A DNA stretch of 13,234 nucleotides from a virus (taxonomy: Duplodnaviria > Heunggongvirae > Uroviricota > Caudoviricetes). The notes under the pieces are model-generated. The model searched no databases, was not told the DNA's origin, and worked only from the letters and a program-made list of their open reading frames with translations. This document shows, piece after piece, positions 847 to 3,596 of this stretch. A program made the translations under genes and the position numbers. Every line of letters begins with the position of its first letter. Within the stretch, counting starts at the first letter, position 1. The DNA is taken from the IMG/VR virus record IMGVR_UViG_2850778813_000008, one strand, 5' to 3'.

Positions 847-1241
847 TGAGGTAGCCTGAGTTTAACGGACACTCCTTCCTGAAATAGAATGGCATCAGAA
901 GGAGCTAATAATGAGCAGAAAAAACCAACGTTACTCTAAAGAGTTCAAAGCCGAAGCTGTCAGAACGGTTCTTGAAAATCAACTTTCGATCAGTGAAGGC
1001 GCTTCCCGATTATCCCTTCCTGAAGGCACTTTAGGACAATGGGTTACCGCCGCCAGAAAAGGGCTCGGTACTCCTGGTTCCCGCACGGTGGCTGAACTGG
1101 AATCTGAAATTCTGCAACTGCGTAAGGCGTTAAATGAAGCTCGCCTTGAGCGAGATATATTAAAAAAAGCAACAGCGTATTTTGCACAGGAGTCGCTGAA
1201 AAATACGCGTTAATCGAACAATGGCGACAACAATTTCCCAT
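847..1241 (+). mobile_element. IS600 (IS3 family), 5' fragment only (left IR plus orfA); interrupted by IS629
   Basis: Starts TGAGGTAGCCTGAGTTTAACGGACAC, identical to the left end of the complete copy at 6035; sequence follows the complete copy until ~1241, then IS629 left IR begins. Junction ambiguous over 4 nt (TGAA shared). Confidence 0.8.
911..1213 (+). CDS. IS600 OrfA (IS3-family transposase N-terminal HTH protein)
   Basis: 100-aa ORF MSRKNQRYSKEFKAEAVRTVLENQ... recalled as IS600 orfA; differs from copy at 6099-6401 at two residues (R/C, A/V). Confidence 0.85.
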   Translation: MSRKNQRYSKEFKAEAVRTVLENQLSISEGASRLSLPEGTLGQWVTAARKGLGTPGSRTVAELESEILQLRKALNEARLERDILKKATAYFAQESLKNTR

Positions 1242-1295
1242 TGAACCGCCCCGGGAATCCTGGAGACTAAACTCCCTGAGAAAGAGGTAAACAGG

Positions 1296-1622
1296 ATGAC
1301 TAAAAATACTCGTTTTTCCCCCGAAGTCCGTCAGAGGGCGATTCGTATGGTTCTGGAAAGTCAGGGCGAATATGACTCACAGTGGGCGGCAATTTGTTCC
1401 ATTGCCCCAAAGATTGGCTGTACACCGGAGACTCTGCGTGTCTGGGTACGCCAGCATGAGCGGGATACCGGAGGCGGTGATGGCGGGCTCACCACCGCTG
1501 AACGTCAGCGTCTGAAAGAGCTGGAACGTGAAAATCGTGAACTGCGCCGCAGTAACGATATCCTTCGCCAGGCTTCCGCTTATTTTGCGAAGGCGAAGTT
1601 CGACCGCCTCTGGAAAAAGTGA
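1296..1622 (+). CDS. IS629 OrfA
   Basis: 108-aa [36 protein letters not shown]..., HTH-type IS3-family orfA; ends W-K-K-stop over an A-rich run just before orfB. Confidence 0.8.
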
Positions 1623-2509
1623 TGCCACTGCTGGATAAGCTGCGTAAGCTGTACGGGGTCGGACCGGTATGCAGTGAACTACATATTGCCCCGTCAACGT
1701 ATTACCACTGTCAGCAACAGCGACATCATCCTGATAAACGCAGTGCCCGTGCGCAGCGCGATGACTGGCTGAAGAAAGAGATACTGCGTGTATACGATGG
1801 GAATCATCAGGTATACGGTGTGCGTAAAGTCTGGCGTCAGTTGTTACGGGAAGGTATCAGAGTGGCCAGATGCACTGTGGCACGTCTCATGGCGGTTATG
1901 GGACTTGCCGGTGTTCTCCGGGGTAAAAAGGTCCGTACGACCATCAGCCGGAAAGCCGTTGCCGCAGGCGACCGCGTAAACCGTCAGTTCGTGGCAGAAC
2001 GACCTGACCAGCTGTGGGTGGCTGATTTTACTTACGTCAGCACATGGCAGGGCTTCGTCTATGTGGCGTTCATCATTGATGTGTTTGCCGGATACATCGT
2101 GGGGTGGCGGGTCTCATCGTCCATGGAAACGACATTCGTGCTGGATGCTCTGGAGCAGGCGTTATGGGCCCGTCGACCGTCCGGCACGGTCCATCACAGT
2201 GATAAAGGTTCTCAGTATGTATCGCTGGCCTACACACAGCGGCTTAAGGAAGCCGGATTACTGGCATCAACAGGAAGTACAGGCGACTCGTATGACAACG
2301 CGATGGCGGAGAGCATCAATGGTCTTTACAAAGCGGAGGTAATACACCGTAAGAGCTGGAAAAACCGTGCAGAAGTGGAACTGGCCACACTCACGTGGGT
2401 GGACTGGTATAATAATCGACGATTGCTGGAAAGGCTGGGCCATACTCCTCCGGCAGAAGCAGAAAAAGCTTATTATGCTTCCATCGGAAACGATGATCTG
2501 GCAGCCTGA
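1619..2509 (+). CDS. IS629 OrfB (DDE transposase catalytic domain; normally expressed as OrfAB by -1 frameshift)
   Basis: 296-aa ORF in -1 frame relative to orfA, overlapping its stop; contains DDE-type region (...WVADFTYV..., ...HHSDKGSQY..., ...YDNAMAES...). Confidence 0.85.
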
Positions 2510-2551
2510 GTTCACAGATAAAACACTCTCCAGGAAACCCGGGGCGGTTCA

Positions 2552-3120
2552 AACTGCCGGAACTGCCTGCTCGTATAATGACTGCCCTGATCGCTGTGGA
2601 ACATCACCCCGCCGGGCTTACCACGGGTTTCCCATGCCATTTCCAGCGCTTTCATGGTGAGCCTGCTGTCCGGCGAGAACGACATGGCCCAGCCCACTGG
2701 TTTTCTTGCGAACAGGTCGAGAACAACGGCGAGGTACGCCCAGCGCTTACCCGTCCAGATACAGGTCACATCACCGCACCACACCTGATTTGGCTCGGTC
2801 ACGGCGAACTGCCTTTCAAGGTAGTTAGGGATAGCAACATGTTCATGACCACCACGTTTATACCGGTGAGTCGGCTGCTGACAGCTGACCAGCCCCAGCT
2901 CTTTCATGAGCCTGCCAGCAAGCCAGCGTCCCATCTGGTAGCCTCTCCGGGTTGCCATTGTGGCGATGCTTCTTGCTCCGGCCGAACCATGGCTGATGCC
3001 ATGTAGCTCAAGTACCTGACTGCGTAATACAGCCCGTCTGCCGTCTGGTTTTTCAGGACGGTTTTTCCAGTATCTGTAGCTGCTGCGATGAACCCCGAAC
3101 ACTTGGCAGAGTGTGACCAC
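2552..3120 (-). pseudogene. IS911 OrfB, C-terminally truncated by IS629
   Basis: Matches copy-2 OrfB through ...[14 protein letters not shown], then reads FEPPRVSW... into IS629 sequence (track ORF 2512..3120 is a chimera). Confidence 0.8.
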
Positions 3121-3146
3121 AGGATAATGCGCTCTGAGTTTCCCGA

Positions 3147-3449
3147 TTATCGAGAACTGTTCAGGGAGTCTGACATCAAGAGCGCGGTAGCCTTTTTTAA
3201 TATTTCATTCTCCATTTCAATGCGTTGTAGCTTTTTCCTCAGCTTACGTATTTCGATTTGTTCTGGTGTTATCGGAGAGGCTTTTGGTGTTTTGCCCTGA
3301 CGCTCATCACGCAGTTGTTTGACCCATCTTGTCATTGTGGAAAGGCCAACATCCATAGCTTTGGCGGCATCTGCCACCGTGTATTTCTGGTCAACAACCA
3401 GTTGAGCGGATTCGCGTTTAAACTCTGCGCTAAAATTTCTTTTTTTCAT
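3147..3449 (-). CDS. IS911 OrfA
   Basis: [49 protein letters not shown]... recalled as IS911 orfA; track ORF 3147..3485 begins at an upstream in-frame ATG, native start assumed at MKKRNF. Confidence 0.8.
3192..3198 (-). other. IS911 programmed -1 frameshift heptamer A_AAA_AAG (copy 1)
   Basis: Reverse complement CTTTTTT at 3192-3198 corresponds to A AAA AAG near the 3' end of orfA, position-matched to copy 2. Confidence 0.6.
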
Positions 3450-3596
3450 TGGAGCACCTGTGTTGTTCTGAGGTGAGCATATCACCTCTGTTCAGGTGGC
3501 CAAATTCAGTGTGCCACTTCAGCCCGAAAGGGCGGGGAGCAGTCACACATCTGTTTCCGATAGCCCCGTTCTAATGCTACACTCTTTGATATTTTT

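Follow-up and report, generated by a model that had tools for sequence, protein, structure and literature searches.

Recombination between insertion sequence (IS) copies in Shigella (Hawkey et al., 2020, PMC7373316) provides one of the closest described counterparts of the locus reported here, which likewise lies in an IS-saturated genome and combines a prophage integrase pseudogene with gene loss beside an IS. That study, together with the counts made in the present loci, indicates that IS copies lacking target duplications are commonplace in Shigella (PMC7373316). Insertions of IS1, IS2, IS4, IS600, and IS911 were counted there from short reads, nested multi-IS junctions are not resolved, and IS629 does not occur in the main text (PMC7373316). 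The transposases of IS629 and IS3 delete DNA next to the element, over a few nucleotides to more than 40 kb and with end-point homology of up to 6 bp, while an IS-excision enhancer protein (IEE) joins ends with 4–6 nt of microhomology (PMC9943667; bioRxiv 10.1101/2023.06.07.543989; PMC8860574). The word "Shigella" does not occur in the overview preprint on IEE (bioRxiv 10.1101/2023.06.07.543989). A further counterpart is the Rac cryptic prophage found at ttcA in E. coli, which shares its insertion site and its intR with our locus (98.5–99.8% identity in the best-matching genomes), whereas here the DNA from the start of intR up to queH is missing.

The window, by which we mean the whole stretch of 13,234 nt that was analyzed, belongs to a dead Rac-type prophage at ttcA in a Shigella boydii-like genome, and CP026814.1 matches it at 100% over its entire length. 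The IS load is heavy, with seven IS copies or fragments in these 13 kb, and the remainder of the prophage remnant is also interrupted by IS600, IS911, IS66-family, and IS629 copies. The part of interest runs from a 3' fragment of intR through IS600 nt 1–395, a complete IS629, and an inverted IS911 (nt 970–1) into the DNA upstream of queH, and comprises the following features:

1–846, minus strand: the 3' 846 nt of intR, which encodes the tyrosine integrase of Rac-type prophages, with its stop codon at 1–3; the 5' 390 nt are absent
847–1241, plus strand: IS600 nt 1–395, with the left inverted repeat (IRL) and a complete orfA (911–1213), without orfB and without the right end, from alignment to a full IS600 copy
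1242–1245, plus strand: TGAA common to IS600 (nt 396–399) and the left tip of IS629, read directly
1242–2551, plus strand: complete IS629 of 1310 bp, left repeat 1242–1266 and right repeat 2527–2551, from its repeats, ORFs, and pseudoknot
1296–1622, plus strand: IS629 orfA, overlapping orfB
1577–1693, plus strand: full ALIL frameshift pseudoknot, 109.5 bits (gathering score 50)
1619–2509, plus strand: IS629 orfB, NCBIfam transpos_IS3, 309 bits (cut-off 160)
2512–2934: chimeric ORF of 140 aa running from IS911 orfB into the right end of IS629, confined to 11 contigs of the collection, each time at this locus
2552–3521, minus strand: IS911 from nt 970 back to 1 in inverted orientation, with the left repeat at 3521, an intact orfA (3147–3449), and a truncated orfB, from the match to a full IS911
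3522–4283, plus strand: prophage DNA resuming upstream of queH, with queH itself at 3618–4283, from the QueH annotation and the outer IS911 junction

The positions of elements and junctions given in the original prediction all hold almost to the base. It had described IS629 as complete, and the element indeed has the expected size of about 1310 bp and TGAAC...GTTCA termini, with terminal inverted repeats of 26-nt arms that are 92% complementary, as well as the two-ORF organization of the family, in which orfA (helix-turn-helix) overlaps orfB (DDE/rve domain) and is linked to it by a -1 frameshift with its stimulatory structure. A matching RefSeq feature is labeled "IS3-like element IS629 family transposase", identity to other full copies is 97–99.9%, and copies on an S. 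boydii plasmid are only 1–2 nt away. The predicted lack of target duplications is equally clear at this element, with CAT on the left and AAC on the right in place of the 3-bp duplication of a simple IS629 insertion. An IS629 without a duplication is still IS629 and is structurally intact, but as five of the eight distinct full IS629 copies in related loci do have a 3-bp duplication, this copy is to be seen as the product of a secondary event.

The left neighbor of IS629 proved to be the IS600 interior just after orfA, as had been proposed. Its IRL is intact at 847 (TGAGGTAGCC), orfA matches the IS3-family profile at its N-terminus, RefSeq records label features coinciding with this element as IS600, and the part is 99% identical (three mismatches) to the full 1264-bp IS600 at 6035–7298 in the window, itself flanked by a GGA target duplication. 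The element is incomplete: it stops at nt 395 (399 counting the shared TGAA), and both orfB and the right repeat are gone. On its other side, the intR fragment is 99.8% identical to annotated E. coli intR and adjoins ttcA in two of the loci compared (L007 and L013). Intact intR reads through the break point as ...AAGAT/ATCGC..., and the IS600 IRL cuts it exactly at 846. The suggestion of one scar that also cuts the integrase needs to be qualified: the junction there is an ordinary IS600 end. We infer that the 5' part of intR was lost in the same deletion as the rest, since it would have lain past the lost right end of IS600.

To the right of IS629 lies the interior of IS911 orfB, again as foreseen, with IS911 cut at nt 970 and its end at 3521. 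The repeat finder gave a 971-nt arm (2552–3522) which includes one chance base, the true IS911 part being 970 nt. This part has the left inverted repeat and orfA of IS911 and is 100% identical to the reverse complement of nt 1–970 of the full IS911 at 8352–9600, a copy that coincides with the CDS "IS3-like element IS911 family transposase" in NC_007608.1. The inverted part lacks the final 279 nt of the element, and what is left of its orfB spans profile positions 105–295 of 369. Uninterrupted prophages read ...gagacc followed directly by GCCCGAAAGG... at the outer IS911 junction. A 202-aa version of the junction ORF, with a V or M start, had no exact-protein match, while the 140-aa gene-caller version was matched; the confinement of this ORF to the present locus, on 11 contigs, argues that the IS629/IS911 junction formed in place. 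The three elements do not form a composite transposon, which was ruled out by three different IS abutting with zero cargo between them and by unequal outer flanks (GAT and GCC). The mosaic is a scar and not a working device.

Three high-copy IS lying side by side are where assemblers fail, and a 970-nt perfect inverted repeat lies only 4.8 kb away, so that misassembly, with repeated IS copies collapsed or wrongly joined, had been a concern from the outset. However, seven separate assemblies from different samples share the same 60-mers over all four junctions. They comprise the multi-megabase, chromosome-sized CP026762, CP026795, CP026814, and CP026866 and the drafts AMKA01, AMKC01, and PTES01. 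Flanking SNPs vary among them (2–11 mismatches), thus the seven are not copies of one record. The arrangement is real, and an assembly artifact is barely credible. Outside this group, neither inner junction is contiguous in 5,426 complete E. coli genomes, where separate IS pieces only are found, and the IS600/IS629 junction is not in the GTDB one-genome-per-species set, which probably holds no Shigella of this clade.

Comparison with related genomes, which the original prediction had proposed as a check, reveals what preceded the scar. In locus L008 (CP045784.1) a full 1249-bp IS911 sits at the identical queH junction; IS911 was therefore truncated later, in the present lineage. At the ttcA site this locus combines intR and the full IS911 with queH and with a fragment of an AAA-ATPase gene from the same prophage. 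In an intact Rac-type prophage of E. coli (OZ040973.1), about 11.2 kb lie between the outer break points, against the 2.7-kb mosaic, and include xisR, recET, racR, ydaS-V, and other genes. The locus thus has the marks of an IS-anchored deletion scar, namely an exact IS end, no target duplication, and intervening DNA that is kept in relatives. A further contrast comes from a plasmid of S. boydii NCTC 9850 (NZ_CP026763.1), which carries the same two elements in the same relative orientation, with an IS629 allele that has two differences. There, IS629 is nested at IS911 nt 640–642, between the two IS911 halves and with a 3-bp duplication (GAC), whereas in the window IS629 abuts IS911 nt 970 and the other IS911 half is replaced by IS600. 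The full IS911 in L008, the 11.2 kb of intact prophages, and this plasmid nest together support the earlier view that IS629 was not simply inserted and that IS-mediated deletion or recombination has occurred here at least once. Other IS629–IS911 pairs were rejected as instances of the same junction: those on S. boydii and S. dysenteriae plasmids are either the nest at nt 640–642 or two adjacent full copies, and the pair beside an integrase in E. coli FDAARGOS_1277 belongs to a different island, at tRNA-Leu.

Both IS629 ends are exact to the base at the inner junctions, and as only IS629 ends sit there, it was IS629 that anchored the deletion. We consider a transposase-dependent adjacent deletion from the left end of IS629 to IS600 nt 395 to be the best explanation, with about an even chance of being correct. 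The order of events and the enzymology that we infer are as follows. In a Rac-type prophage at ttcA, IS600 would have entered intR at nt 846 and IS911, inverted, would have inserted just upstream of queH. IS629 would then have inserted into IS600 or IS911, with IS911 (between nt 970 and 971) as the likelier host. Finally, a deletion with its anchor at the left end of IS629 would have joined that end to IS600 nt 395, removing the 3' 869 nt of IS600, the 5' 390 nt of intR, xis and adjoining prophage DNA, and the 3' 279 nt of IS911. In total this makes about 2.5 kb if the early region had been lost beforehand and about 12 kb otherwise. In an adjacent deletion the IS end would stay exact and the far end would fall at a few bases of homology, here TGAA inside a 6/7 mimic of the IS629 tip. 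An IEE-assisted microhomology route may also be envisaged, the 4-nt overlap being the one feature that fits it. Counting against the adjacent-deletion explanation, the copy-out-paste-in mechanism alone predicts no donor deletions (bioRxiv 10.1101/2023.06.07.543989).

The principal rival, somewhat less probable but a serious contender, begins with two same-orientation IS629 copies, one at IS600 nt 395 and one at IS911 nt 970 (the second perhaps arriving as a local hop from the first), between which RecA-type recombination deletes the DNA and leaves one hybrid copy with mismatched flanks. This is the standard explanation of Shigella deletions (PMC7373316). Full copies without a duplication are common in these loci (three of eight distinct IS629, six of nine IS600, and six of nine IS911, about 58% over the three elements), and IS629 nests in IS911 elsewhere, on the S. 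boydii plasmid (nt 640–642, GAC) and in E. coli FDAARGOS_1277. A hybrid SNP pattern was sought in the mosaic IS629; copies in the lineage are only 0–2 nt apart, hence there is little to distinguish, and a hybrid copy would be traceless. Yet this route requires two nested insertions within one short interval, and none of the contexts retrieved with the truncated intR, queH, hok, or junction ORFs contained a nested intermediate. Nor were its predicted reciprocal junctions (the IS629 right end with CAT and IS600 from nt 396 on; the IS911 3' part with AAC and the IS629 left end) found in GTDB representatives or JGI metagenomes, where such strains may be unsampled. Inversion or translocation between distant copies of IS629 (or of IS600 or IS911), with the missing halves surviving elsewhere in the chromosome, appears improbable. 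Shigella chromosomes are strongly rearranged via IS copies (PMC7373316), and the intR and queH modules of E. coli FDAARGOS_944 belong to separate prophages at a distance of about 700 kb, so the flanks need not always have adjoined. Against this, the flanks were neighbors before the IS629 event, as is evident from L008, and OZ040973.1 holds both modules in one prophage; a reciprocal junction was again not found in the same GTDB and JGI collections.

Adjacent deletion and recombination between two IS629 copies give an identical finished product which sequence alone cannot separate, and it is the TGAA overlap that weakly favors transposase-driven adjacent deletion. The predicted 4-nt overlap is confirmed by direct reading, and in fact the lost IS600 sequence at the junction, TGAAGCG, agrees with the IS629 tip, TGAACCG, at six of seven positions. 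By chance a 4-nt overlap is expected in about 1/256 per junction, and under two-copy recombination it would be a coincidence of about 0.4–1.6%. No tip-like target occurs at the five IS629 insertion sites with target duplications in these loci. Even so, a single 4-nt overlap noticed after the fact is weak statistics. It is conceivable, if rather unlikely, that the left junction is non-random, the IS629 tip having been joined to a tip-mimicking IS600 site in a natural, fixed case of IS3-family transposase strand transfer guided by microhomology or an end mimic. Were this true, other IS with TGA tips and internal mimics would be preferred landing sites, and end-mimic targeting could help to explain the piling up of IS into IS in Shigella.

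Overall, the scar is of a familiar type, nested IS and IS-flanked deletions being the expected state of Shigella chromosomes. Its importance is small beyond bookkeeping and it raises no new question. Within those bounds, the scar accounts for the inability of this prophage remnant to excise: with no integrase start, excisionase, or early genes left, it stays fixed in the chromosome. Its four junctions also provide a stable marker of one Shigella boydii-like clade, of use in typing or assembly checks, and the scar adds one more well-resolved natural case to the catalog of IS629-anchored deletions. Among known systems, the adjacent deletions made by IS629 in EHEC O157 (PMC9943667 and bioRxiv 10.1101/2023.06.07.543989, citing Kusumoto et al., 2011) and by IS3 in experiments (PMC8860574) share with our scar an exact IS end, the loss of neighboring DNA, no duplication, homology of a few bases at the distant end point, and kilobase size. 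Records of strand transfer guided by microhomology or end mimics come so far mostly from plasmid assays and EHEC O157, whereas here, if it did occur, it would be natural and fixed. The present scar, with its presumed dependence on transposase or IEE, differs from the EHEC O157 and IS3 deletions in being natural and fixed in a Shigella boydii-like clade, with both end points inside other IS.

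The element order of the mosaic was taken from direct reading of the sequence and from the internal repeats of the window. Break points were set by alignment to the full copies of IS600 (6035-7298, with a GGA target duplication) and IS911 (8352-9600) that the window also carries. The parts are as follows:

1-846, minus strand: the final 846 nt of a gene for a tyrosine integrase, whose stop codon occupies 1-3
847-1241, plus strand: IS600 nt 1-395, with its intact left repeat (TGAGGTAGCC) and complete orfA (911-1213)
1242-2551, plus strand: complete IS629, 1310 bp
2552-3521, minus strand: IS911 nt 970 down to 1, with its intact left repeat at the far end
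3522 onward, plus strand: prophage DNA running into queH (3618-4283)

In the alignments, the IS600 part shares 99% identity with its full copy (3 mismatches) and the IS911 part 100%. All transposase ORFs of these elements matched the NCBIfam IS3-family model in the profile search; the names IS600 and IS911 are RefSeq labels on features coinciding with identical sequences, and the IS629-family label likewise comes from a database match. The window reading, repeats and alignments agree almost to the base with the order, coordinates and elements of the original prediction. It had also described IS629 as complete, and the inverted repeats, orfA, the full ALIL frameshift pseudoknot (1577-1693) and orfB are all present. 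Its neighbours are, as proposed, the IS600 interior after orfA (nt 395) and the IS911 interior (nt 970). The bases next to IS629 are CAT (left) and AAC (right), so it has no target duplication, again as claimed. The 4 nt said to be common to IS600 and IS629 at the left junction, TGAA (1242-1245), do indeed fit both IS600 nt 396-399 and the IS629 tip, with the IS600 continuation being TGAAGCG vs. TGAACCG for the tip (6/7 match).

Misassembly, an early concern, can be set aside. Related assemblies were reached by looking up four ORFs as exact proteins: queH, hok, the truncated integrase and a 140-aa chimera that spans the IS629/IS911 junction. Compared as 60-mers, all four junctions show no difference among seven assemblies (CP026762.1, CP026795.1, CP026814.1, CP026866.1, AMKA01000067.1, AMKC01000120.1, and PTES01000001.1), in which the flanks vary by a few SNPs; CP026814.1 equals the window over all 13,234 bases (100%). 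Neither inner junction was found in any of 5,426 complete E. coli genomes. The clade is probably S. boydii or a very close relative, given that the accession of CP026762.1 adjoins the S. boydii NCTC 9850 plasmid record.

At 99.8% identity, the truncated integrase gene is the intR of Rac-type prophages; it adjoins ttcA. Intact intR copies read ...AAGAT/ATCGC... through the point where IS600 starts, and uninterrupted prophages read ...gagacc/GCCCGAAAGG... at the IS911 end point. Both flanks lie in one prophage of E. coli OZ040973.1, ~11.2 kb apart, with xisR, ralR, recT, recE, kilR, sieB, racR, ydaS-V, and DUF977 in the interval. A relative at the same ttcA site, CP045784.1 (L008), carries the following series: the final 321 nt of intR, IS1, a 297-bp piece of the prophage AAA-ATPase gene, full-length IS911 and queH, with IS911 in the same orientation as in the window and exactly the same queH junction. 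This arrangement shows that, before the IS629 event, IS911 was complete at the queH spot and the intR and queH flanks were already neighbours at the ttcA site. Much of the early region may have been lost beforehand, next to IS911. If it was already gone, the IS629-linked deletion comes to ~2.5 kb (869 nt of IS600, ~1.3 kb of intR-xis-DUF1187-ATPase DNA, and 279 nt of IS911); if it was still there, ~12 kb. Both relatives support the original view of an IS-mediated deletion or recombination and not a simple insertion.

The inner junctions involve IS629 ends only, both exact, and IS629 is therefore the element the join was built around. A single IS629 could have inserted, the simplest site being IS911 just after nt 970, and one of its ends would then have been joined to a nearby site by transposase-dependent adjacent deletion. 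Published reports put IS629 adjacent deletions in EHEC at a few nt to >40 kb (cited in PMC9943667; overview bioRxiv 10.1101/2023.06.07.543989), and describe an IS-excision enhancer protein able to join ends with 4-6 nt microhomology (same sources). IS3 transposase on plasmids reproduced adjacent deletions with ≤6 bp homology at the end points (PMC8860574). The product is identical if two IS629 copies, one per resident IS, recombined, an origin we consider possible though somewhat doubtful. The TGAA overlap is expected under adjacent deletion, whereas under recombination an overlap within the 6/7 tip match would be a chance of ~1 in 256 per junction, and nothing like it is seen at five IS629 insertion sites of the ordinary kind in related loci. 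For this reason we lean toward adjacent deletion, with evenly balanced confidence, but a single overlap spotted after the fact is thin evidence; this tip-like microhomology is the sole mildly interesting point of the locus.

No intermediate state was seen among the contexts retrieved with the queH, truncated integrase, hok, and chimeric ORFs, nor were reciprocal junctions of simple nested insertions found in GTDB species representatives or JGI metagenomes. By exact-protein look-up, the junction-crossing ORF is confined to the mosaic locus, evidence that the junction formed in situ. Survival of the missing IS halves elsewhere in the chromosome after an inversion is unlikely, since CP045784.1 has both flanks and a complete IS911 together.

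Elsewhere in the remnant, the IS911 fragment (2552-3521) and the matching part of the full IS911 (8352-9321) form a perfect inverted repeat of 970 nt on either side of the 4.8-kb queH-hok-Q-tRNA segment. Recombination could thus invert this segment, which has one orientation in all seven assemblies. A hok/sok toxin-antitoxin module by queH (4341-4666) appears intact (sok RNA 116 bits, 70-aa hok-family ORF). After the Q-like gene lies a phage tRNA cluster (8055-8354) that comprises a tRNA with a CAT anticodon, called Met by ARAGORN but Ile in related RefSeq records, as well as Arg-TCT and Thr-TGT; a fourth one (Gly in FDAARGOS_944) is truncated at model position 63, where the left end of the full IS911 begins. 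The full IS911 also lacks a target duplication (TCC vs. GGG). It directly adjoins a truncated transposase gene of the IS66 family (9527-10843, minus), beyond which come tnpB and tnpA (10892-11637) and a detached C-terminal part of IS66 TnpC (11627-12091); 8352-9600 and 9601-12100 form a further multi-IS scar. The full copy of IS600 represents a simple insertion in a ybcO-like (DUF1364) gene directly upstream of the Q-like gene, and in CP045784.1 (L008, 11495/11496) the DNA to its left (window 5113-6034) is deleted, another IS-adjacent deletion. The mosaic copy and a second IS629 (12305-13234, minus, extending past the window edge) differ at 14 sites, of which 13 cluster in nt 405-614, so that the alleles look mosaic or recombinant; the second copy is missing from the same place in CP026762.1.

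intR is interrupted by IS600 after nt 846 in the window (846/847), by the left end of IS911 following nt 847 in UYIS01000021.1 and PSSP01000001.1 (1 bp from the IS600 site), by inverted IS600 at nt 803 in CP026839.1 and by IS1 at nt 321 in CP045784.1. Breaks were placed around 9919 in retrieved loci L016 and L018, around 9963 in L017 and at 7590 in L008. The gene has been struck independently in separate lineages at nearly the same spot, which may reflect an insertion hot spot (TTTAAGATATCGC) or plain convergent decay.

When distinct full-length copies from the retrieved loci are counted, three of eight IS629, six of nine IS600 and six of nine IS911 lack a target duplication. On the S. boydii NCTC 9850 plasmid (L028, NZ_CP026763.1, 93122-95683), IS629 lies inside IS911 at nt 640-642, flanked by a clean duplication of GAC, and in an E. 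coli tRNA-Leu island (L031, NZ_CP070103.1) it is nested at another site. With nt 970 in the window, this makes three positions in different replicons, and IS629 may often land in IS911. The mosaic is a genuine, clade-fixed, IS629-anchored deletion scar that disabled a Rac-type prophage, and there are seven IS copies or fragments in the 13-kb window alone. Such a scar is not unusual and is of a well-known kind: Shigella chromosomes carry 229-348 IS insertions, with IS-linked deletions and pseudogenes as their hallmark (PMC7373316).
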